Below are positions 2 through 49,600 of a DNA stretch of 64,000 nucleotides, piece by piece. The DNA lies in IMG/VR virus record IMGVR_UViG_3300014501_000001, positions 49,097-113,096 of that record. One strand, written 5' to 3'. Positions within the stretch are counted from its first letter, which is position 1; every line of letters begins with the position of its first letter. Source of the stretch: a virus. Below the pieces are notes generated by a model, which made no database searches, had not been told where the DNA came from, and worked only from the letters and a program-made list of their open reading frames with translations. A program made the position numbers and the translations under genes.

Positions 2-241
2 GGCGGCTCAGCGGAGAAGTCAGGCAAGACCAGCGCCGAGATCCTCCGCGAGTACTGGACCCATGAAGGGCACCCCGGCCCCACGCAGTACGCCCTGGAA
101 GAGAAGATCCGCTGGGGCGAGAAAGACGACTGGTACCGCTGCGTGGACGAGCTAACGCCCTACATCGGCGAGGGTGCGCGTGGCTATTGCACGCTCAGGC
201 ACCACGAGGTCCTGGGTGCCTGGCCCGGACATCCGGTCTGA
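2..241 (+). CDS. 3' end of a head-morphogenesis gene (portal/MuF-associated domain), truncated by the window edge
   Basis: Frame 2 reads ...LREYWTHEG...KIRWGEKDDWYRCVDELTPYIGEGARGYCTLRHHEVLGAWPGHPV* with TGA at 239-241. The YW...KIRWG...RC...G.C...H...G.WPG motif recurs in actinophage head proteins. Confidence 0.6.
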   Translation, partial: GGSAEKSGKTSAEILREYWTHEGHPGPTQYALEEKIRWGEKDDWYRCVDELTPYIGEGARGYCTLRHHEVLGAWPGHPV

Positions 242-4612: not shown

Positions 4613-7303
4613 ATGGCAGCCACACTGACCGCCGGCAACGACCTTGCTTTCGCGAGTTTTCCCATCGAAAAGTGGGAGGACGGCCCGGACGGCTCGGTCT
4701 ACGTCTACGGGAAGGCATCGACGCCCGAGATCGACACGGACGATCAGGTGGTCTCGCCCGATTTCTCGGGCCCGGCTCTCAAGCAGTGGATGGAAGCGCC
4801 CGCGCTCCGGGTGAACCATCAGGCCCGCCGCGACCCGGCCGGATCGGGCATTCACGTCGAGATTGACCGGGATGGCGACGGCGCCCACTGGGTGAAGTCG
4901 ATCGTGGCCGAGAAGGAAGCGGTCCGGCTGGTCAAGGGCGGCCACCTGCGCGCCTACTCCATCGGCATCGCCCGGCCCGTCATCGAGCGCGACATGACCG
5001 GGAAGGCGCGCGGCGGCATCATCACGGGCGGCGTCATCGCCGAGGTCAGCCTGGTCGATTCGCCCGCGAACAGGTCATGTTTCCTAGAACTGGTCAAAGC
5101 GGACAAGAACGGCGACGCGCAGTGGTCCGGCAAGGTGTTCGGCGCTGACGACTTCCTCGCCAAGGACGCCGCCCCGGACCTGATCAAGGGCACCGTCTCC
5201 TTCTCCCCTGATGACCTCGCCAAGCTTCTCCAGCACCGCAAGGTCGCCGAGGAGCGCGAAGCGGAAGTCACCAAGGCGGCGGCGGGAGCCGACGAGGCCG
5301 GCGGCGACAACGCTGCGGCTGACCAGGAGGACGAGTCCGGCAACGCCGACATGGAGAACGCCGACGACACGGACGCGCCGAAGGCAGCGGAGCCGGACGC
5401 GGCAGAGGTTGCCGTGGCCGATGCGGTGAAGGCGGTAGAGGTCGCCGTCTACAAGCGGGACGTCTCCGCAGCGGAGCGCAAGGAACTCGCCGGCAAGGGC
5501 CACGCGCTCAAGGACGGTTCCTACCCGATCGCCAACGCCGAGGATCTGGGCAACGCGGCGATCCTGGCCCGCTCCGGTCACGGTGACGTGGCAGCCGCGA
5601 AGGCGCTGATCGCCAAGCGCGCGAGTGAACTGGGCGTGGCCAACCCGCTCGACGACGACGCGGAGAAGGCCGCCACGGCCGATGACGCGCCCGCCGTTCC
5701 TGTCGCTGACAAGGCCGCGAAGCCGAAGATGGCGTGCCCGTCGTGCGGCAAGAAGTCCGGGGCGAAGAACCCGTTCTGCTTCAAGTGCGGCAAGAAGATG
5801 ACCCCGGACACCGATGACAAGGCCGACAAGGCCGCATCCCCGACGCCCGCCGATGGCGTGAAGGACGCGCCGCCGGCCGAGCCCGTCACCCCGCACCGGG
5901 AGCCTGACGGGGTGGCGATGGAACAGCTCGAGGACGACGCGCACCTGGAGGGCGGCAACCCGGACGAGGGCGGCGAGCGCGCGGCCGAGGCCGCCGTAGC
6001 GCCTCCCGCAGCCGAGGACGCCCAGGTGGGCAAGACGGCCGGCTCCGAGGCCGCGTCGTGGCGGATCAGGGAGGCCGGCGCCTCGTGGGGCGAGGGGATC
6101 CTGCATGATTTCCTGTGCCCCGCGTTCTCCCCGGACGCGACCGCGAAGTCCTACCCCGGCCAGACCCTCGCCGCCGTCGCGGACCCGGCGGAATGGCAGT
6201 CGAAGGCACTGTCGGCCGCGATCGACGCCCCGATCCCGGAGGCGGGCAAGGCGCAGCGCCGCTGGCAGGATGCCCTGACCATCGCCGGCACGGACGCCGA
6301 GACGGTCACGGGCCTGCGCTGGGAGGCGCACAAGGCGTTCGCCGACGCGAACCCCGGCCCCTCCGCGTACCCGACTCCGGGCGAGTTGCGCCCGCAGTCG
6401 TTCCGGCGCCCGATCCTCACTGACGGGCAGTCCCCGAGCCCGGCGGCGTCCGGCGCCAGCCCGTCGCACATCACGGCCGATCACATCTCGGCTACGGACT
6501 TCACCCGCGGCCCGCTCACCGGAGGCCAGGAAGCCTCCAGCGAGCCAGAGGGAGACAACGGCTCCCAGGGCGTCCCGTCAGTGCCGGGGAAGCCGCAGCG
6601 GACCTTCTACCGCAACACGAGCCGCGACGGCGCCAGGGCCGCGATGGCGTCCATGCACGACCACATCGCGGGAACGTTCCCCGACCTGTGCCCCATGCAC
6701 GGGCCCGGGATGGGCGGCCAGCCGCCGGCGGGCGCGCGTCCCGTCCCGGTGCCGGGAACCCGGAAGGCAGAGGACGAGCCGGAGGTTGTCAAGGCAGCGG
6801 CGCCGGCAGGCAAGCCGGCCAAGGTGGCGTGCCCGTGCGGCAAGAAGGCCCGTCCCGGCAAGTTCTGCCCCGGCTGCGGCGAGAAGATGCCGATGAAGGG
6901 CGGCATGGCTGCCAAGGCAGCGGACCCGCTGCCCGCCGTCGCCGCGCTCCCGGTCCCGTCGCTGGACGCCGCGGCGCTCCAGGCAGCCGTCGAGAAGGCC
7001 ATCGCCCCTCTCGCCGCCAGGCTTGAGCAGCAGGGCGATCTCATCGACCAGATGGCCTCTGCCCCTGACCCCCGCTATGCCCCGTTCAAGGCCGTGGCTG
7101 CCGGCGGGGTGCTCCCGAAGGCCCTCCAGCCGGCCCCGGCGGTACCTGAGCGGAGCGCCGTGGAGAAGGCAGCCAGCAACGTGCAGGAAACCCTCCTGCG
7201 CGACCTCCAGTACCAGGCCCGCAACGACCCGGACCCCGGCAGGCGGGAAGTCGCCTGGCAGGAGCTGACCAGGCTGCTGAACGTCGCGGGCGGCACGCGG
7301 TAG
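4613..7303 (+). CDS. Prohead protease (HK97-type) fused to scaffold-like region with two zinc ribbons
   Basis: Protease motifs VYGKAST, VNHQ, YSIG and EVSLVDSPAN; a HALKDGSYPI motif; two CxxC/CxC ribbons; position upstream of the capsid gene. Confidence 0.85.
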   Translation: MAATLTAGNDLAFASFPIEKWEDGPDGSVYVYGKASTPEIDTDDQVVSPDFSGPALKQWMEAPALRVNHQARRDPAGSGIHVEIDRDGDGAHWVKSIVAEKEAVRLVKGGHLRAYSIGIARPVIERDMTGKARGGIITGGVIAEVSLVDSPANRSCFLELVKADKNGDAQWSGKVFGADDFLAKDAAPDLIKGTVSFSPDDLAKLLQHRKVAEEREAEVTKAAAGADEAGGDNAAADQEDESGNADMENADDTDAPKAAEPDAAEVAVADAVKAVEVAVYKRDVSAAERKELAGKGHALKDGSYPIANAEDLGNAAILARSGHGDVAAAKALIAKRASELGVANPLDDDAEKAATADDAPAVPVADKAAKPKMACPSCGKKSGAKNPFCFKCGKKMTPDTDDKADKAASPTPADGVKDAPPAEPVTPHREPDGVAMEQLEDDAHLEGGNPDEGGERAAEAAVAPPAAEDAQVGKTAGSEAASWRIREAGASWGEGILHDFLCPAFSPDATAKSYPGQTLAAVADPAEWQSKALSAAIDAPIPEAGKAQRRWQDALTIAGTDAETVTGLRWEAHKAFADANPGPSAYPTPGELRPQSFRRPILTDGQSPSPAASGASPSHITADHISATDFTRGPLTGGQEASSEPEGDNGSQGVPSVPGKPQRTFYRNTSRDGARAAMASMHDHIAGTFPDLCPMHGPGMGGQPPAGARPVPVPGTRKAEDEPEVVKAAAPAGKPAKVACPCGKKARPGKFCPGCGEKMPMKGGMAAKAADPLPAVAALPVPSLDAAALQAAVEKAIAPLAARLEQQGDLIDQMASAPDPRYAPFKAVAAGGVLPKALQPAPAVPERSAVEKAASNVQETLLRDLQYQARNDPDPGRREVAWQELTRLLNVAGGTR

Positions 7304-7977: not shown

Positions 7978-8676
7978 ATGGCGGACATTCTCGAAGCAAC
8001 GATCGCCCCGGCTGACCAGCTCAGCCCCACGGGCGCAGAGGTCGCCGGCAACGTCGCGCAGTTCTCCCGCACGGGGGAAATGCTGAAGGCCCGGCTCCCG
8101 AACCTCGTCAAGGGAGCAGGCTACGCCGGGACCGGCAACGCCCCCCTCACCGACGAGATCCAGATCATGACCAAGGCATCCCAGGCCGCTATCGACCTGC
8201 GGCAGGCAACCTGGGACGGCATCACCGACAAGCCGGCCGTGGTCAAGGGCATGAACCAGGGGTTCCTGAACCAGTTCGGGTACCTGAAGACGGCCCTGAC
8301 GGCCCCGTCGCTGATGGACACCCTCGCGGGTGTCTTCGGGCAGATGCCCGGCGGCAGCGAGGCGTTCAAGAATTTCACGGCCGGCAATCTCGGGGTGGGG
8401 TCGGTGTACGGTTTGGTGCCGTTTGACCTCATGCGACCGAGTCGTCTGATCTACCCGGTATATACCGTTTTCCGCAACAAATTCCCACGGCCCCAGGGCC
8501 AGGGCACGAGCGCGCAGGAACGGGTCATCACCGGCATCTCTGGCAGCCAGACCGGCGGCCAGGGTGTCCTCGACGTGTCCATCACCGAGCTGGTTCAGAG
8601 CGGCGGTACGTTCTCGAACTGGCCCCTCAACCTGCCGCCTTCGGGCTCGCAGACTGAGGTCTTCCTCAATGTGCCT
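7978..8676 (+). CDS. Major capsid protein, exon 1 (233 codons)
   Basis: RBS TAAGGAG; capsid-like FRNKFPR..GQG motif; ends ...LNVP at the U8676-G8688 wobble of intron P1. Confidence 0.9.
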
Positions 8677-10024
8677 TGCATCCTGTAGGGCCGCCGCGCC
8701 GCGAGGCGCACGCGATAACCGCGAGAATTGCTGGAAAGCCCGTACCACATGCACATGCCACAACGTGGGGCGAAAGCCCGAGCGTGATGGCCTGAAAAAT
8801 GTGCATTAGGGGTAATCAGCAGCCGAGCCCGCCTGGACCGCGACACGCGGCACCGACGGGATGGTTCAGAGACTATGCACGCGGGTTCTGGTAATCTTTA
8901 ACGATGGAGATTAATAACGATGACTGGCAGATAATGGCCGGTCAGGAGCGGGAAGAGTTCATTCGGCGCTACGTGGCTGGCGAGGCCCTGACATCCCTCG
9001 CCAGGGAGTATCACCACGGGCCTGCCACGCTGAGGGCAATCCTCGTCAGCGTGGGGGTGCCAGTCCGGACAAGGCCCGGATACGCCAAGGGCAGGAAGTG
9101 GTCAGAAGCGCAGCGTGAAGCTCACAGGCGCACAACTAGCACCCCTGAGCACAGGCAGAAGATGCGCGCGATCATGCTGAAACGCCTCCCGGTCATGCGC
9201 GGAGCGGCGACGAACTCTCCGATCGAGCGCCGGATGCAAGATGCGCTCATGGCGGTCGGCATCGGCTTCACAACGCAGTCTGTCCTGCTGGACCGCTACC
9301 TGGTGGACATCGAGATCCACCAGGCACCCATCGTGATTGAGGCTGACGGCGCGCAGCACACACTGCGCATCCAGAAGGCCAAGGACGCCGAGCGCGACAC
9401 GGCTCTCACTGCCGCCGGGTACCGGGTTTTCCGGTTCACGGGCAGCGAGATCAATGCCGACGCCGTGCTGTGTGTCCGGCGTGTTATCGACGCTTGCTTC
9501 CTGGTTCCCGACCAGGAGCCCATCTATGAAATCCGCACGGCTTTCACTGGCGAACTCCACCCGCTCTGGAAGGGCGGCAAGCGGGAGTTCACCTGCGAGA
9601 TCTGCGGGGTCGTGTTCATGGCTCAGCCTGCGCACCGCAAGGGGCCGCACATCTACTGCAGCATGCAGTGCAATGGTGCAGCCAAGCGCGGCAAGACGGC
9701 GAGTGCTGAGACCCGTGCCAAGATCAGCGCCGCGAATAGGGGCAAGGAGCGCAAGCCCCCGCCACCGTTCACGGCCGAGCATCGCGCCAAGATCAGCGCA
9801 GGGCTTAAGGGCAGGCCAAAGACTGCGGAGCACGCCGCCAAGGTTGGTGCAGCGCAGGCTGGCAGGCCAAAGTCCGCCGAGACTCGGGCAAAGATCAGCG
9901 AAACGCTCAAGCGTCGAAACGCAAACCAGAACAAGATAGAGTCCGCTCTGCATGGAGACATGCAGAGGCCGGCAGAAATGACCGGCCCCGCCACCCTGTT
10001 CTGAGGGCGGCGAGTAACAACAGG
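8677..10024 (+). mobile_element. Group I intron 1 (1348 nt) with homing endonuclease in P8
   Basis: P1 GCCUUGCA/UGUAGGGC; P AATTGCTGGAAA 8726-8737; Q AATCAGCAGC 8814-8823; R TCAGAGACTA 8866-8875; P8 GTTCTGGT 8885-8892 with ACCAGAAC 9925-9932; S AAGATAGAGTCC 9933-9944; P9 with GAGA tetraloop; terminal G10024. Confidence 0.93.
8904..10004 (+). CDS. Intron-encoded homing endonuclease (HTH + DUF559/Vsr-like nuclease + Zn finger + NUMOD3 repeats)
   Basis: SPIE...VDI...IEADGAQH...KDAERD..L...GYRVFRF nuclease motif; CEIC...YCSMQC; repeated SAETRAKIS. Confidence 0.88.
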   Translation: MEINNDDWQIMAGQEREEFIRRYVAGEALTSLAREYHHGPATLRAILVSVGVPVRTRPGYAKGRKWSEAQREAHRRTTSTPEHRQKMRAIMLKRLPVMRGAATNSPIERRMQDALMAVGIGFTTQSVLLDRYLVDIEIHQAPIVIEADGAQHTLRIQKAKDAERDTALTAAGYRVFRFTGSEINADAVLCVRRVIDACFLVPDQEPIYEIRTAFTGELHPLWKGGKREFTCEICGVVFMAQPAHRKGPHIYCSMQCNGAAKRGKTASAETRAKISAANRGKERKPPPPFTAEHRAKISAGLKGRPKTAEHAAKVGAAQAGRPKSAETRAKISETLKRRNANQNKIESALHGDMQRPAEMTGPATLF

Positions 10025-10084
10025 TACCGTTTCTTCGGCATCAGCGAGCAGCTTTCCTGGCTCGCGCAGTTCGCAGGACAGGGT
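10025..10084 (+). CDS. Major capsid protein, 60-nt micro-exon 2 (YRFFGISEQLSWLAQFAGQG)
   Basis: Lies between the terminal G of intron 1 and the U10084-G10095 pair of intron 2 P1; joins both neighbouring exons in frame. Confidence 0.88.
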
Positions 10085-10359
10085 CAACTTAGAGGCCCCC
10101 TCGCAGGGTGACCTGCGAGTTCACTCGGCACCGTAACGGTGAACCCCGCCAAGCCAAGGGGAATACCGTGGAAACCTCGCACTACAGGGTTCCGTAGAGA
10201 GCAAGCGTGCCGCGCCTGTGTCATGGGACCTGCCCCGAGTGCATCAGGGGCAGCGGACCGCAGGCGAAGTTGTGCTCCGGGCTCGCGCGATGGAAAAGCG
10301 CGAGAGGCGTCCAGAAATGAGGCGCCCGGCCGTCCCCAGTGGCGGCAGGTAACAGTTCG
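10085..10359 (+). ncRNA. Group I intron 2 (275 nt, ORF-less)
   Basis: P1 GGGUC/GGCCC; P2 CTCGCAGG-GTGA-CCTGCGAG 10100-10119; P3 CGGCAC 10126-10131 with GTGCCG 10207-10212; P4 ACGGT/ACCGT; R CGTAGAGAGCA 10193-10203; S AAGTTGTGCTCC 10267-10278; terminal G10359. Confidence 0.88.
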
Positions 10360-11415
10360 TTCGAGGACATTGCCGGCCTGGCCAACCTGATCATGCTTCA
10401 GGAGGCCATGCTCGGAGAGGAATATCAGTTCATAGCGGGCACTTCCGCTCCGCTGGCCGTTCCCGCAGCACCGACCTGCACTGTCCGCACCGCCGGCTCC
10501 AATGAGACGGCGCTCAACACGAACATCACCGCGGTCAAGGTGGCCGCGACCAACTACTTCGGCTCGACCGCCGTCTCGGCGGCCTCGTCCACGTTCGCCG
10601 TGGCGTCCGGCCAGGTCGTGGATGTCACGATCGCCCCGGTCGCGGGCACGATGACCTACTCGATCTACGCCTTCACGTCCGGTTCCAGCTACTACCTGCT
10701 GGCATCGGGCGTCGGCGGCCAGAAGTACACCCTGCAGGGCTTCTCGTCCCTGCCGACCGCCGTCGTCCCCCCGGCTGCCGACACCGGCACCGGGAAGAAC
10801 ACCCGGATGGAAGGCGTCATCCCGACGCTCACCGGGGCGTCGGCCGCTGCGGGGGTCTACCCCAGCGGCTGGCAGGGCGGCTACGTCAACCAGTCCGTGG
10901 GAACCCACCTGTCCTACAACGCCATCTACACGGCGCTGGACAGCCTGTGGGAGTCCAACTCCAACTCACCGGGCGCATTCAAGGCGGACCCGCAGGAGAT
11001 CGTCGGCGACGGCGGCGACATCATGCGCCTGTCCAACGACGTGATCTCGGCGGGGACGGCGACGAACTACCGCCTGTTCCTGGAGCAGCAGGAAGTCGGG
11101 GGAATGCGCGTCGGCGGCGCCGTCAGCGAGTTCCAGAACCCGATCACCCGGTCCATCCTCAAGCTGGTCGTCCACCCCTGGTTCACGCAGGGCACGGCGG
11201 CCTTCATGACCTACCAGCCGCCGATGACCTACTCCCAGATCAGCAATGCCTGGGAAGCCCGAATGGTGCAAGATTACGCCAGTATTGCCTGGCCTGTCAT
11301 AGATGCGACCTTTAGGTTCTCAATCTTCTGGTATGGGGCCTTGATCGCGAATGCGCCATTCTTCTCCGGTTTGCTCCAGGGGCTCCAGATTAGTGACGTT
11401 ACGCCCTACTCCTGA
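10360..11415 (+). CDS. Major capsid protein, exon 3 (351 codons + stop)
   Basis: FEDIAGLANLIMLQEAMLGEE...; HK97-fold-type C-terminal motifs VHPWF, YASIAWP and APFFSGLLQGL. Confidence 0.9.
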   Translation, partial: FEDIAGLANLIMLQEAMLGEEYQFIAGTSAPLAVPAAPTCTVRTAGSNETALNTNITAVKVAATNYFGSTAVSAASSTFAVASGQVVDVTIAPVAGTMTYSIYAFTSGSSYYLLASGVGGQKYTLQGFSSLPTAVVPPAADTGTGKNTRMEGVIPTLTGASAAAGVYPSGWQGGYVNQSVGTHLSYNAIYTALDSLWESNSNSPGAFKADPQEIVGDGGDIMRLSNDVISAGTATNYRLFLEQQEVGGMRVGGAVSEFQNPITRSILKLVVHPWFTQGTAAFMTYQPPMTYSQISNAWEARMVQDYASIAWPVIDATFRFSIFWYGALIANAPFFSGLLQGLQISDVTPYS

Positions 11416-27567: not shown

Positions 27568-30500
27568 GTGGCCACCTTCACCTGGACGCAGGCGGTCGCC
27601 GGGACGTATACGTGGGTGTGCCCTGCGGGGGTTACGGCTGCGCAGGTGGAGTGCGTCGCGGGCGGCGCGGGCGGCGCCGGCGGGTCGTCGGGGTCAGCTG
27701 CGGGTTCCGGCGGCGGCGGCGGCGAGTACGCGGCCGAGCCTGCGCAATCCGTCACGGCGGGCTCGTCGTACACGGTTGTCGTCGGCGCGGCGGGGACTGC
27801 GGGGGCGACCGCCGGCGGCACGGGAGGCGCTGGCGGGAACTCGACGTTCGCGGCCACGTCCGTCGTCGCCCACGGCGGCACCGGGGGAACCTCCAGCGGC
27901 TCCGGGGGCGGGGCGGGCGGCACCGGGTCATCTAACACGACGCACAATAACGGCGGCGCGGGCGGCGGTCACGGCGGGAAGTCCGATGGCGGCGGCGGCG
28001 GCGGCGGCTCAGGCGGCTCGGGGTCGGCGGGGAACGCGGGCGCGGCTTCGTCGTCCTCGACGGGCGGCGCGGGCGGCACGGCGGTCACCGGCGGCGGCCC
28101 GGGCGGCGCGGGCGGCACCAGCACGGCTGCCGGGAATGCGCCCGCGTCGGGTCCCGGCGGGGCGGGCGGCGGCGGCGGGGATGCCAGCGTGGCGGGCGGC
28201 GCGGGCAAGCCGGGCCGGGTCATCATCACGGTCACGATCCTCTCGCCTGCCCTGTTCACCTCCGCTGACACCGCCTGGGCGTTCGTGGTCCCGGCGGGGA
28301 TCACGGCGATTCACGCGGAATGCTGGGGCGGCGGCGCCGGGGGTTTCCAGGCCGGCACCTCGGGCGGGGCGGGCGGCGGCGGCGGTGCCTATGCGGGCGA
28401 GCCCTCACTAGCCGTCACGGCAGCCGGCTCCTACCCGTTCACGATCGGCGCCGGCGGGGCGGCGAACGCCTCGGGCACGAGCTCGGTTTTCGCCGGCGAC
28501 GCTGTAACGGTCACCGCTAACCACGGCGTGGTCTCGGCGGCGGACGGGACCGGCGGCGCGGGCGGGGCGGCAGGATCGAACACGGCTGCCTTCGCGGGCG
28601 GCGCCGGCGGCACGAACGGGACCACGGGCGGCGGCGGCGGCGGCGGTTCCGGAGGCACGGCTGCCGGGGGCAATACCGGGTCTAACGGCTCCACTGTCAC
28701 GGGCGGGTCCGGGGCCACGGCGGTCACCGGCGGCGGCCCGGGCGGCGGCGGAGGCAGCGCCGGCGGTCCCGGTTCGGCGCCCGCATCGGGGCCGGGCGGC
28801 GGCGGCGGCGGGGCCGGCTACACGAGCACCACGAACGGCGCCGGGTTCGCGGGCCAGGTTCAGCTGACCTGGGGCACCGGGGTAACCGGCGCCGTCTCGG
28901 CCCTCGCCCTCGCTGCTCCCGCCGGGTCGGTCAGCGCCGGGGCAACCGTCGCGGGCGCCGTCGCCGGCCTCACCTTCGCGGCTCCCGCCGGGTCGGTCGT
29001 CACCGGGATCAGCGTCGCCGGGCAGGTCGCGGGCCTCACCTTCGCGGCCCCGGCAGGCTCGGTGAGTGCCGGGGCCACGGTCGCGGGGGCCACGGCTGCC
29101 CTGACCCTGGCGGCGCCGGGCGGGTCGGTCACCGCAGGGGCATCCGCGGCGCTCACGGTCAGCGTGGCCGGGTCCGCGTCGTTCGCTTTCCCGCTCACCG
29201 CCGCCGGCATCCCCGATCCGGGCACTCTCTCCCTGCCCGTACCCGTCAGTAACTTCACCGGGGACTGGCTGTTCGCGATCATCTCGTGGCGGCAGGCACC
29301 CGGCACCCCGCCGGTCACCTGGTCCGTGGGAGACGACGCCCTGGGCCTTACCGGGACGCCGGGCCACAACTGGTGGGACCCGCTCGGCAACCCCGCCGGG
29401 ACCTCCAGCGGCTCCGGGGTGACCCGTACCGCGGTCTGGGTGGCTCCCGCCGCGAGGGCCTGCTCGACCGTTTACATCGCGCCCACGGATTTCTACCTGT
29501 CCGTGGCGTGCACGGTGCTGGACGTTGCCGGGATGCAGCCCTGGTACACCCTGACCGGGATCGACACGGCGTACGTGAACTCGGCGCTGTCGCTGCCCGG
29601 CCTGACCCTCGGGGCGCCTTCGGGGCCGGCGTTCCTGATCACCGCCTGCTCCTCCGACGTGATCACTGACACGATCAGCCGGTCCGGCGCCGGCTGGACG
29701 TCCCTGCCGACCCTCACCGCGACGAACGGCACGGACCTCACCTCCGACCTCAAGCAGACCCCCGCGTGGCAGGTCACTTCCTCGTCGTCGTCGGCGGGGT
29801 ACTCCAGTTCCTCCGGCCAGGATCTGTCCGGGGTCCTCGGCGGGGTCCTGGTGTCGGCGCAGAAGCCGGGCCAGCCGTCCCGGTACTGGCCGGTGACCAT
29901 CGCGGAGATGGCGCCCGGCTCCGGGATAGGGTCGCCGCCGGACACGCTGGCCTGGGTCGCGACGACGGCGCGGTACCTGAAGATGTCCGTCACCCAGGGC
30001 CGCCAGTACGAGCTTGCGACCCTGTCCACGGGCGAGGGCACGCTGCTGCTCGACAACCCCGACGGGGCGCTCCTGCCGCCGGGGACGGGCAATTTCGCGG
30101 GGATCACGGCGGGGACGCCGTACCGGCTGCGGACGGCGTGGCCGGGCGGCGCGTGGCAGGTGTCGTTCCACGGCAACGGCTCCACTGCCGCGCCGCGGAT
30201 CAGCACCGGGAACATCTACCCCGCCGCTGCCGGGACCGTTTACTCGGCGTCGGCGTGGCTGTCGTGCTCGCCGTACTACGCCTCCGGCTGCCACCTGACG
30301 ATGAACTTCCGGCAGTCCGGCGGCACGTTCATCTCCGCGGTGTCGTCCTCCAGCGTGACCGGGCTCGCCGCCGCGCTGGCCACCGTCTCCGGGACGGCGC
30401 CGGCGAACACGGGCCTGATCGAGCTGGTCATCGCCGCCACGGGCACCCCGGCATCGACGGTGACGTTCTACGCCGCTGCCGTGTTCTCCTCCGGCAGCCC

Positions 30501-46672: not shown

Positions 46673-49600
46673 CGGTGCTCCTGATCCGCTTCACGATCAC
46701 GGTGCTGTCGGTGAACGTGAGGAACGCTGTCGCCGTGGCGGCAAGATGACGGCGGCAGGAATCCTGCGCGTCGTACTGGCGCCCCTGGGAGACAAGGAAG
46801 GACGCCTCCGCGCCGCAGCGCTCGGCTCCGTCGATGAGCCATTCGCATGTGCGCTTAGGTGTCATCGGCATCCCCTTCCCCGGTAAGGGCGGCGCTGATA
46901 GCCCGGTACTCCGGGCACGGCCAGCGGTGATTGTCATAGCGGCATGTGAGGCTCCAGTTGGGGCGCCGGGTCGTTGGCTCGTGCGCGGTCAGCGCGGCTT
47001 CCAGCGCGTCCAGGGCCTTCCCCCACCCGCCGAGCAGGACCGGGAGGTCAAACGCCTCTGGCTGCACTATCGCGGCGTCCAGGGTGGCACGGAGGTAGCC
47101 GAGTCTTGCGGCTACCGGGTCTGCGCGCGTCGGCACGGCGTAGCACGGCTGGCCCGGGTCCAGGTCCGCGCAGGACATGCACCCGGGAGACTCTCCCTGA
47201 TGGTCACGGAAATCCCCGCGCAGGCACATCCCGGGAGTGCAGGTGCAGCTCGCGGCTACCGGGCCTGCCGTTGTTCCGTCGTCAGCCACTGACCGGCACC
47301 TTCTGCTTGTCGTACTGGCCGATGCCCCACTGGATAGCGTGGCAGCACCAGAGGAACTGCCAGTCGTAGTCGTGCAGGTCCCACTCCCAGGCGTCGGTGA
47401 AGCGGAACGGCTCGCTGCCGGACCCATCGCCCTCGGGCCGGTACTCGAAGTCCCTGAGCGCTTCCCGCGCGCCTTCCTCGTAGCCGGTGTCCCACTCTTT
47501 GAGGGCACCGAAGATCCGCTCTGCGATGGCGGCGGTCAGGCCCGGCTCATCAGCCTCCGCGTCGGCGGCATACTCGGTGACGAGCTGGCGGAACTTCGCC
47601 GGGCTGTAGCGGGTCGTCTTGCCTGCGCGCACCTTCTCGGCCCAGTACTGCGGGTTGATGCCGTGGCCCCGGAAGAACTCGAACATGTCATCGCAGCGGG
47701 CCAGCGTGAAGCTCCCGCAGTCCCCGTTGACCACCAGCGAGCCAGGCCAGGTGATCAGGTCGAACCAGTAGGCCGAGCGGTCCGGGCGCCGGAACCGCAG
47801 GTGCCGGTACAGGCCGTCGTCGTGCAGGATCGTCATCTGGTGCCCGGCTGTGTCACGCTCGAACCGGGCGGCCATGTCGTCAGCCATCGTCCTTGCTCCC
47901 CTCGGTGCCGCTCTTGACGTGCAGCCCGGAGATGGCGCGCTGGACGTCCTGCAAGGACGCGGTCAGCCCTGCGGCACGCTCGGCTGCCAGCCGCAGGTGC
48001 ATGCTCGCGCCCTCGCAAGCGACCGCCGGGTCGCGCCCGCTGTCATCACCGAGTTTTCCCGTGGCAAGCTGCGCGGCCAGGAACTCCGCAAGCTGGCCGC
48101 AGAGCTGCGGTAGCCGCGAGGTTGCCGAGTAGAGCTCACCGAGCAGCCGGTACGCCTCAGACGGGTAGTCCAGCCCCGGGGCGCTTCCCATCGTGCTGTA
48201 GACCAGGAAGCGCGAGCAGGCGTCGAAGATGGCGGCTACCTCGGCCGTCCGCTCTGGTGAGTGCGGGCCATCGGGGTTCAGGTCGATGTTCACGGGGTCT
48301 CTCCTGCCTGCGCCACGGGGGCGCTCTCAGATCCGGGGCTGCATGTCACGAGCGCGGGGTCCAGGGTCATCCGGTGCCATGAAGGCACCTCGAACGGGGT
48401 CTTTCCGCAGCAGGGAAACAGCCCGTCGCCGCCGTCCGCGAAGGGAACGGGGCAGCGGTGGGTGACGCTGCCGTGCTCTGCGGCCAGGGCGTCAAGGCCG
48501 CGGGTCATCGTTCCCCCCCCCAGGTATGCCCGCGCTACCGCGAGAGCGGCCTGCCTGATGTCAGCGTGGTCGTCGCCTTCCTCGCACTCGCAGGTGGAGG
48601 CGGCATCAAGGAGGTCAGCGACGGCGAGAGCGGTGCCGGGGTGCATGCCAGCGATGTGCTCGGCGTCGGCCCGGTCCCGCTCGATCAGGACCAGTTCGGC
48701 GCTGCCGGGCTCGTCATGGATGCCGGTCGTCACCTGCCCGTAAGTCCTGCTGGCCACGTACCACTCCTCGTGCACGCTGTTGAAGGCGTGCCATTCGCCC
48801 GGCGTTGCCGCCTCGGCGCGCTCTCGCATCAGCTTCGCTGCCTGCCTTAGCTCGGCTGCGGGTGATAGGTCAGCCATCACTTCTCCCCTTGCCGCGCTAG
48901 GCGATCAAGCTCATCGCCCGGCGTATCCGCATGCGCCTCAATCGACGCCCAGCACGCCGGGCAGTAGGTGCACTGCGTGTAGGGATCGAACGCGACCCAG
49001 CCCTCAGGCGTGATGTCCTCGACGGTGCCGGTGCGGAACTGGCCCCAGCCGTGATCCTGGCCGCTGAGGCTCACGAACTCGCGCCGGAGGGGAGCGGTGC
49101 CCTCGGCCTTGGCGAAGCAGCCCCCGCATTCGAGGGTGATGGTTATCGGCATCGCTCAGCCCTCCAACTCGGTCATCTTCGCCAGCACCTTGTCGTAGGC
49201 ATCCACGTAGCCGGCGGCGATGGCCTGCTTGCGGTACTCGCCAGCTTTGCCCTGCGCCGTAATCTCCTTCGCGTAGATCAAGCGGTCACCGTCGATCTCG
49301 GCGCGGAGTGCCTGCCAGCGTCCCTCTGCCGACTGAGGGCATGGCCACGGATCACCGTGGTCGCACCAGGTTCTGCCAGCGTCGCGGACGTGCTCAGCCA
49401 TCGGTCTCAGCCTTCCACGTAGCGGCGGACGGCGGCGTAGGTGCCGGCCGGGATGATCACGTTGTTCTCGTCAGCGAGCAGTACGAGTCGCAGCGGCTCC
49501 GCATCGGTGACGGGGCTGTTCCAGGTGACGAGGCGGAACTCGCCATCCCAGATCACGAGGTCTCCCTCGCGGACCTCGGACCACGGCAGGATCTTGTCGG

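Follow-up and report, generated by a model that had tools for sequence, protein, structure and literature searches.

Introns in the virion genes of Cluster J mycobacteriophages are the closest described relatives of the locus reported here. Removal of the BAKA intron (28,186–28,450) was shown by reverse transcription PCR (RT-PCR), the exon ending in U and the intron in G, and splicing of an intron in the LittleE capsid gene was shown by RT-PCR together with N-terminal protein sequencing (Pope et al., 2013; PMC3706429). The type of these introns was described as “unclear, but most likely a group I”, the LittleE endonuclease as a leftward-transcribed open reading frame (ORF; HNH in the figure legend, LAGLIDADG-like in the text), and a group I intron in the capsid gene of Tuc2009 was cited by the same authors (PMC3706429). 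Several introns in one gene are known from the gene for DNA polymerase in phage CB7 (PMC7344957). Very short exons have been found in Staphylococcus phage Twort, where the tail tube gene orf142 has three group I introns with a 23-nucleotide (nt) exon between two related ones, and in the Coxiella 23S rRNA, where a 34-nt exon lies between two group I introns (PMC10136302; PMC11878797). Here, we analyze the 3′ 64 kb (the window) of the 113,096-bp IMG/VR record IMGVR_UViG_3300014501_000001, from an uncultivated virus. In this window a single gene for an HK97-fold major capsid protein is very probably interrupted by two group I introns that flank a 60-nt exon and are spliced out to give an mRNA for a protein of 604 amino acids (aa). 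There are thus precedents for capsid-gene introns, for phage genes with several introns and for micro-exons between group I introns. What distinguishes this locus is that two introns stand in tandem within a capsid gene, that a Vsr-like/NUMOD3 endonuclease is encoded there, and that the gene belongs to a capsid family in which intron sites are numerous and some differ by only a few bases. A preliminary description of the window had regarded phage group I introns as best described in DNA-metabolism, terminase and lysin genes. This framing is outdated, as introns in actinophage capsid and tail genes were shown to splice in 2013 (PMC3706429) and the second intron of the window is related to one of them.

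The capsid gene was recognized from two large plus-strand ORFs, 7978–8688 and 10339–11415. Both match one PHROG family, phrog_13692, at separate profile positions (34–86 and 197–488), and we therefore consider them pieces of one gene. The first ORF ends at a TAG codon (8686–8688). Joining 7978–8676, 10025–10084 and 10360–11415 yields an in-frame product of 604 aa with no internal stop codon. The predicted junctions are GUGCCU/UACCGU and CAGGGU/UUCGAG (a slash marks each join), and the junction-spanning peptides are NVPYR and GQGFEDIAGLANL. An exhaustive profile search with exon 3 recovered 306 relatives, many of which are 550–635 aa long and have the first residue of exon 3 at about position 204–280. 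Against approximately 40 uninterrupted homologues in this size range the joined product aligns without gaps across both junctions (LNVP/YRFF...GQG/FEDI), with exon 1 covering residues 1–233 of the intron-less proteins; one homologue, P0001, reads LNVPYKFWGLSESLSWLAQFGGQGFEDISALANL across the junction region. The 20-aa segment encoded by the micro-exon is present at the expected position, and its residues are conserved in all homologues. In intron-less relatives the orthologous 60 nt are followed directly by TTCGAGGAC, the start of exon 3 in the window. The continuous three-exon product that had been proposed from the letters of the window alone therefore withstands alignment with intron-less homologues.

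Related capsid loci in IMG/VR, searched with an alignment of nine closer sequences, include genes from which one or both introns are missing. Two of them (L004 and L005) encode residues 1–604 in a single frame, at 68.5% identity, and have neither intron. In a third (L002; 95% identity) exon 3 directly follows the micro-exon, and the point at which intron 2 is missing coincides precisely with the predicted junction. Judged from their sequences, these are natural intron-minus alleles of the gene. The micro-exon differs from its counterpart in L002 by four synonymous and no non-synonymous codon changes. Taken together, the comparisons support the 60-nt exon as real, and two splicing events that lead to a capsid protein of 604 aa.

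We then examined the RNA structure of the two inserts. Relatives were gathered from IMG/VR by motif, with a P4–P5 motif of intron 2 giving 22 loci and an intron 1 motif giving 24. These were used to build an intron-2 family alignment of 22 sequences (A1) and an intron-1 family alignment of 20 rows (A2), in which the window and L002 copies were split into 5′ and 3′ halves around their ORFs. The structures were assessed with nhmmer profiles and with explicit pair counts on A1 and A2, compared with slid-partner and shuffle controls. On A1, scored for P2, P3, P4, P5, P6, P7 (as a pseudoknot), P8, P9, and P9.1, 96.8% of cells are paired versus 34–42% with slid partners. Compensatory changes occur in 32 of the 53 pairs, including those of the P3 and P7 pseudoknot, and none of 500 shuffles reaches the observed values. 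A2, which adds a P5a–d extension with a GAAA tetraloop and P9.2, is 95.8% paired versus 32–39% when partners are slid, and 51 of its 79 pairs are compensatory. The window copies retain the family pairs in canonical form, 53/53 in intron 2 and 68/74 in intron 1. Intron 1 has in addition a P8 stem, recognized by eye, that brackets the ORF insertion with seven pairs out of seven (GUUCUGG 8885–8891 with CCAGAAC 9926–9932). The G-C pair of the predicted guanosine pocket in P7 is invariant at the sequence level (22/22 in A1, 16/16 in A2), and the unpaired P7 nucleotide before it is an A in the window copies and in that of the Cluster J phage Beem. Profiles made without the window rows found exactly these two elements in the 113-kb genome (E-values of 6e-42, 1e-51, and 2e-13), with intron 1 matched at 8686–8889 and 9932–10022. 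The two introns have a related P7–P9.2 domain and different P4–P6 domains. On this covariation, both inserts are supported as group I introns with a complete predicted fold from P1 to P9.2, including the P3/P7 pseudoknot, in agreement with the two complete cores originally noted.

Intron 2 also has a relative for which splicing has been demonstrated. Its nucleotides 45–125 are 81.5% identical (81 nt; E-value 5e-10) to a segment that 28 records of Cluster J mycobacteriophages have in common. By alignment, this segment is the minor-tail-gene intron of BAKA and Optimus, to which intron 2 is homologous. The Beem copy can be aligned over its full length in A1, and its P3 and P7 differ from those of intron 2 by double compensatory changes. 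For instance, the 5′ strand of P7 is GAGCA in intron 2 versus GACUA in the Beem/BAKA-type intron, and both strands have changed together. Intron 1 has only its 3′ domain in common with Cluster J-type introns (E-value 4e-11), and a blastn search with its 5′ half against 50,697 phage records gave no matches. In our reading, the covariation settles that the actinophage introns of the Cluster J type belong to group I, a question left open in 2013.

The splice sites follow the rules of group I introns. In intron 1, P1 is formed by GCCU (8673–8676) and GGGC (8688–8691) with a U8676–G8688 wobble, so that the first capsid ORF stops within the hairpin, and P10 by GUA (8685–8687) and UAC (10025–10027), with three pairs out of three. 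In intron 2, P1 is formed by GGGU (10081–10084) and GCCC (10095–10098) with a U10084–G10095 wobble, and P10 by GAG (10092–10094) and UUC (10360–10362), again with all three pairs. Both introns end in G (10024 and 10359), and G10359 and the preceding GTAACA are invariant in A1 (22/22). These hairpin, guide and terminal features had all been proposed in the preliminary description and are confirmed here. At other sites (L012, L002, L042, and Beem) the guide sequences that form P1 and P10 change in step with the adjoining exons: L012 has CUG and GCCG for ...CGGU/CAG and L042 has GGUA and GGGG for ...CCCU/UACC, as the window intron 2 has GAG and GCCC for ...GGGU/UUC.

In the mechanism that we propose, the capsid gene would be transcribed as a precursor of approximately 3.4 kb that carries both introns on one late transcript. 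Each intron would fold as a conventional group I ribozyme, in which a 4-bp P1 presents the U-G wobble at the 5′ splice site and a P3–P9 core with the P3/P7 pseudoknot offers a guanosine pocket, the P7 G-C pair beside the bulged A. A 3-bp P10 would align the next exon, and the terminal G would mark the 3′ splice site. Two independent pairs of guanosine-initiated transesterifications would then join exon 1, the 60-nt exon, and exon 3 into the 604-aa capsid mRNA. We infer both that splicing takes place and that it is efficient. With hundreds of capsid subunits per virion, a single transcript would have to be processed by both ribozymes with high efficiency and in the correct combination.

A different combination of the same splice sites would remove the 60-nt exon. 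If a substantial share of the transcripts skipped it, a frame-preserved isoform of 584 aa would result, since the length of the exon is divisible by three. Loss of an exon that lies between tandem group I introns has been documented in Twort orf142 (23 nt) and in the Coxiella 23S rRNA (34 nt) (PMC10136302; PMC11878797), and the two introns of the window share a related 3′ domain. Their guide sequences differ, however (GUA and GGGC vs. GAG and GCCC), and would favor inclusion of the exon over skipping, because the GCCU at the end of exon 1 cannot pair with the GCCC of intron 2, and the P10 strand of intron 1 fits exon 3 at only two of three positions. This agrees with the engineering of tandem Tetrahymena introns, in which differing splice-site sequences were reported to suppress skipping (PMC10136302). 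Given the conservation of the 20 residues in all homologues, a skipped protein would probably be non-functional. Thus, we consider skipping on a substantial scale unlikely.

Some observations weigh against two working introns in an intact gene. The contig is a metagenome assembly, and this exact genome may therefore not be viable. P7 of intron 1 contains an A-G mismatch, its outer P2 is weaker than in relatives, and P1 is only 4 bp long in both introns. Single-sequence folding of intron 2 gives a z-score of only −1.6 and a minimum-free-energy structure that is not group I, a result that is uninformative because the ribozyme is pseudoknotted. An Rfam cmscan search found no match to Intron_gpI (RF00028; gathering threshold of 50 bits) in the window at the gathering threshold, or in 8500–10500 at E ≤ 10, and these scans gave only chance matches (Mnt IRES, SAM-IV, and similar families). 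The preliminary description had named the lack of a covariance-model hit as grounds for rejecting the introns. We judge this miss to be uninformative because a 1.1-kb ORF splits intron 1 and intron 2 has a compensated P7 variant, and because Intron_gpI does match their relatives: an ORF-less member of the intron-1 family (L030) at 61.5 bits, a member of the intron-2 family (L008) at 45.6 bits, and the Beem intron at 28.6 bits. The miss therefore weakens the group I assignment only a little.

Several of these points would fit inactive ribozymes in a non-viable variant, or a mis-assembly involving a capsid pseudogene. Such an origin is very unlikely, as every exon keeps its reading frame intact and has drifted from L002 only synonymously, nearly all family pairs are retained (see above), and the ORF in intron 1 is intact. 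In addition, the record has direct terminal repeats and is rated 100% complete, and the same intron families occur at the same or nearby sites on independent contigs.

The ORF in the P8 loop of intron 1 encodes a protein of 366 aa and extends through the 3′ strands of P8 and P7, P9, and P9.1 into P9.2. Pfam searches identified a DUF559 domain (E-value 3e-14; 53 bits, cut-off 20.6) and NUMOD3 repeats (1e-7; 32 bits, cut-off 20.4), and PHROG families annotated as homing endonucleases match its C-terminal part. Homologues with 29–49% identity are encoded within or beside interruptions of the same capsid family, at the site near residues 143–158. In L002, the P8 position of an intron-1-type ribozyme is likewise occupied by an ORF, but of the HNH rather than the DUF559/NUMOD3 type. 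The 366-aa protein is probably a homing endonuclease, whose Vsr-like (DUF559) nuclease and NUMOD3 repeats would spread intron 1 to intron-less capsid alleles during co-infection.

Mobile endonuclease cassettes can also split a gene without any splicing. In this case the separate capsid polypeptides would assemble non-covalently, as reported for NrdA of Aeh1, which is split by mobE, and unspliced HNH-split phage genes do exist (discussion in PMC7344957). For the capsid gene this is highly improbable: the middle piece of 20 codons lacks its own start codon, although it is conserved and purifying selection acts on it, exon 3 begins in the middle of a helix with no start codon at the junction, the ribozyme core of both inserts is complete, covaries and is accompanied by splice sites that follow the rules, and intron 2 has no ORF. 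Removal at the protein level (inteins), group II splicing and translational bypass are effectively refuted by the stop codons and frame changes that separate the pieces, by scans of the window that found no intein, reverse-transcriptase, or maturase domains (Pfam, PHROG) and no group II matches (Rfam), and, for bypass, by inserts of 1348 and 275 nt that far exceed the 50 nt bypassed in T4 gene 60. We also considered a single large intron with exon 1 joined straight to exon 3, and this arrangement was ruled out on reading-frame and domain grounds.

Identification of the gene product relies on predicted structure. A sequence profile search of solved structures gave a best match of only E = 0.005, and fold comparison was used instead. 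An AlphaFold model of homologue P0001, which is 60% identical to exon 3 (mean predicted local distance difference test score, 77.8), matches the HK97-fold capsid proteins of phages Pa223, SPO1, SU10, T5, and HK97 with E-values from 4e-11 to 5e-5. This model, made for the homologue and not for the joined window protein, identifies the gene as one predicted to encode an HK97-fold major capsid protein. In the model, the residues corresponding to the micro-exon and the start of exon 3 form a strand and helices that lead into, and form, the long spine helix.

The capsid gene is present as a single copy in the genome, which has a G+C content of 68%. The closest prophage-like copies of the gene are found in genomes of Streptomyces, Actinoallomurus, Arthrobacter, and Streptosporangiaceae, and an actinomycete host is therefore plausible. 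A 22-residue stretch with 73% identity to capsid residues 130–151 (tblastn E-value 3e-5) is encoded outside the gene at genome positions 48471–48536, approximately 560–630 nt before the start of the window. The capsid gene is preceded by a protease-like gene. This 896-aa ORF (4613–7303, plus strand) lies directly upstream, and its N-terminal ~190 residues resemble head-maturation proteases (a weak match to phrog_3270, and the “head maturation protease” of Alicyclobacillus phage MMB025). The ORF also encodes two CxxC...CxxC zinc-ribbon motifs within a long region rich in Ala, Pro, and Asp, and its product may be a protease-scaffold fusion.

Table 1. Features of the interrupted capsid gene and of related loci. 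Positions are those of the window unless a locus (L number) or residues of the joined capsid product are given.
Feature	Position	Strand	Description
Capsid exon 1	7978..8676	+	233 codons; final base U8676 is the predicted 5′ splice site; phrog_13692 match
Intron 1	8677..10024	+	1348-nt group I intron; P5abc-type extension; endonuclease ORF in P8 loop; ends in G10024
Intron 1 internal guide sequence	8685..8691	+	GUA (P10, with 10025-10027), then GGGC (P1, with 8673-8676)
Intron 1 5′ ribozyme part	8693..8891	+	A2 alignment, covariation; P8 read from sequence
Intron 1 P2	8693-8712		
Intron 1 P3	8719-8723/8880-8884		
Intron 1 P4	8730-8734/8816-8820		
Intron 1 P5/P5a-d	8738-8813		GAAA tetraloop at 8772-8775
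Intron 1 P6	8825-8867		
Intron 1 P7	8869-8876 (5′ strand); 9938-9944 (3′ strand)		
Intron 1 P8	8885-8891 (5′ strand); 9926-9932 (3′ strand)		
Predicted homing endonuclease	8904..10004	+	366 aa, ORF intact; DUF559/Vsr-like at residues 118-188; NUMOD3 repeats, residue 263 onward
Intron 1 3′ ribozyme part	9926..10024	+	A2 alignment, covariation, nhmmer
Intron 1 P9	9948-9965		
Intron 1 P9.1	9968-9986		Conserved CAGAAAUGA loop
Intron 1 P9.2	9990-10011		Followed by GUAACA and terminal G10024
Micro-exon	10025..10084	+	60 nt, 20 codons (YRFFGISEQLSWLAQFAGQG); contiguous with both flanks in intron-less relatives; immediately precedes the long spine helix of the HK97 fold
Intron 2	10085..10359	+	275-nt group I intron, ORF-less; A1 alignment, covariation, nhmmer E-value 6e-42
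Intron 2 internal guide sequence	10092-10098		
Intron 2 P2	10102-10117		GUGA loop
Intron 2 P3	10126-10131/10207-10212		
Intron 2 P4	10136-10140/10165-10169		
Intron 2 P5	10144-10161		
Intron 2 P6	10170-10192		
Intron 2 P7	10197-10203/10273-10278		
Intron 2 P8	10213-10266		
Intron 2 P9	10282-10304		
Intron 2 P9.1	10306-10326		
Intron 2 terminal G	10359		
Capsid exon 3	10360..11415	+	351 codons plus stop
Endonuclease homologues	L039:4157-4987, L132:2993-3706, L120:4628-5392, L138:846-1505		One on a contig of a Streptosporangiaceae metagenome-assembled genome
Interruption site	residues ~143-158		L039, L120, L132
Interruption site	residue 164		L033
Interruption site	residue ~231		L002
Interruption site	residues 233/234		Window intron 1, L042, L044, L045
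Interruption site	residues 251/252		L012
Interruption site	residues 253/254		Window intron 2
Interruption site	residues 272/273		L003, L033, L037, L049, L052
Interruption site	residues 562/563		L033, L042

Inclusion of related loci allowed us to evaluate the distribution of introns across the capsid family. Interruption sites were mapped by tblastn of the joined product against the fetched loci. The family has at least eight intron sites (Table 1), and 78 of the 80 best-scoring IMG/VR loci are uninterrupted, a sporadic distribution that is the expectation for mobile introns. Several genes are interrupted more than once. Two introns, at 233/234 and 562, are found in L042, L044, and L045. In L033 (214–2831; 3300032783_000064) the gene apparently lies in four pieces (residues 1–164, 163–272, 273–563, and 563–604), which would imply three introns. 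The intron-2 family is also found at other positions: three contigs (L008, L019, and L024) each have two intron-2-type ribozyme copies, approximately 1–9 kb apart, at different positions or in different genes, and several structural genes therefore seem to be colonized by the same intron family.

Some of the sites are only a few nucleotides apart. The intron-1-type ribozyme of L002 (3867–4936) is located 10 nt upstream of the site of window intron 1 (8677–10024), a site common to L042. The L012 intron (~225–507) is 6 nt from the site of window intron 2 (10085–10359), with which it is homologous. In both cases the guide is re-tuned to the local exons. Closely shifted homologous introns of this kind suggest movement to neighboring sites, possibly by reverse splicing, rather than simple homing. 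A more speculative extension, to which we give little weight, is that the capsid gene is a hot-spot in which one group I superfamily hops between neighboring sites by reverse splicing, and that the recurring tandem arrangements may impose ordered splicing. If so, arrangements like the 60-nt exon would arise repeatedly, and splicing for the most abundant virion protein may be ordered or mutually dependent, with a possibly regulated, exon-skipped isoform of 584 aa.

The locus has direct consequences for annotation. The capsid gene, here and in many IMG/VR relatives, would be mis-called as at least two fragments, and the 20-codon exon would be lost unless intron models for these families are used. 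The generic Rfam model misses the window copies. Misannotation by gene callers had been anticipated from the window itself and is visible in the databases, where proteins begin at residue 17 or 25 of exon 3. For the tail-gene intron of Beem (MZ622169.1, 28520–28784; L007:2450–2714), the interval that contains it, between two coding sequences labeled “minor tail protein”, carries no annotation. More generally, in Beem and other Cluster J GenBank records the intron is unannotated, and the gene is listed as two coding sequences or the first coding sequence reads into the intron. No principle is changed by the locus. It offers a naturally occurring high-GC system in which tandem group I splicing around a short middle exon can be studied, and natural intron-minus and site-shifted alleles are available for comparison.

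Comparison with known systems places both introns within the general group I design. They resemble the Rfam RF00028 family in their P1–P10 architecture and P3/P7 pseudoknot, in a P7 whose G-C pair is accompanied by a bulged A, in sequences that are R-like and S-like (GGUUCAGAGACUA, AAGAUAGAGUCC), and, for intron 1, in the GAAA tetraloop on a P5 extension. They contain no P7.1/P7.2, elements that IA2 introns such as those of T4, SPO1, and Twort typically have. The predicted endonuclease resembles Vsr-like/PD-(D/E)XK-type and NUMOD-containing homing endonucleases from phage introns (for NUMOD3 modules, I-TevI and I-HmuI are examples), in that a nuclease and repeated NUMOD3 modules are encoded within a group I intron, in one of its peripheral loops. 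NUMOD3 is usually joined to GIY-YIG or HNH nucleases, whereas the window ORF joins it to a DUF559 (Vsr-like) domain.

Like Twort orf142, the capsid gene encodes a structural protein of the phage virion, is interrupted by more than one group I intron and has a very short internal exon. On the other hand, Twort has a low-GC Firmicute host, its introns are of subgroup IA2 (PMC10136302), and exon skipping was observed there, while the exon in the window is 60 nt long and its two flanking introns differ in their P4–P6 domains and guide sequences. The Cluster J phages differ in having one intron in the capsid gene and not two, the window endonuclease is of the DUF559/NUMOD3 type and on the sense strand, unlike that of LittleE, and the capsid proteins are unrelated (a tblastn search with exon 3 gave no matches among the 50,697 phage records). 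In other respects, the similarity to Cluster J is extensive: both have high-GC genomes of approximately 110 kb, introns in virion structural genes including the capsid gene, exons that end in U before introns that end in G, and both an ORF-less form of ~265–275 nt and an endonuclease-bearing form, and intron 2 shares the whole BAKA-type fold.

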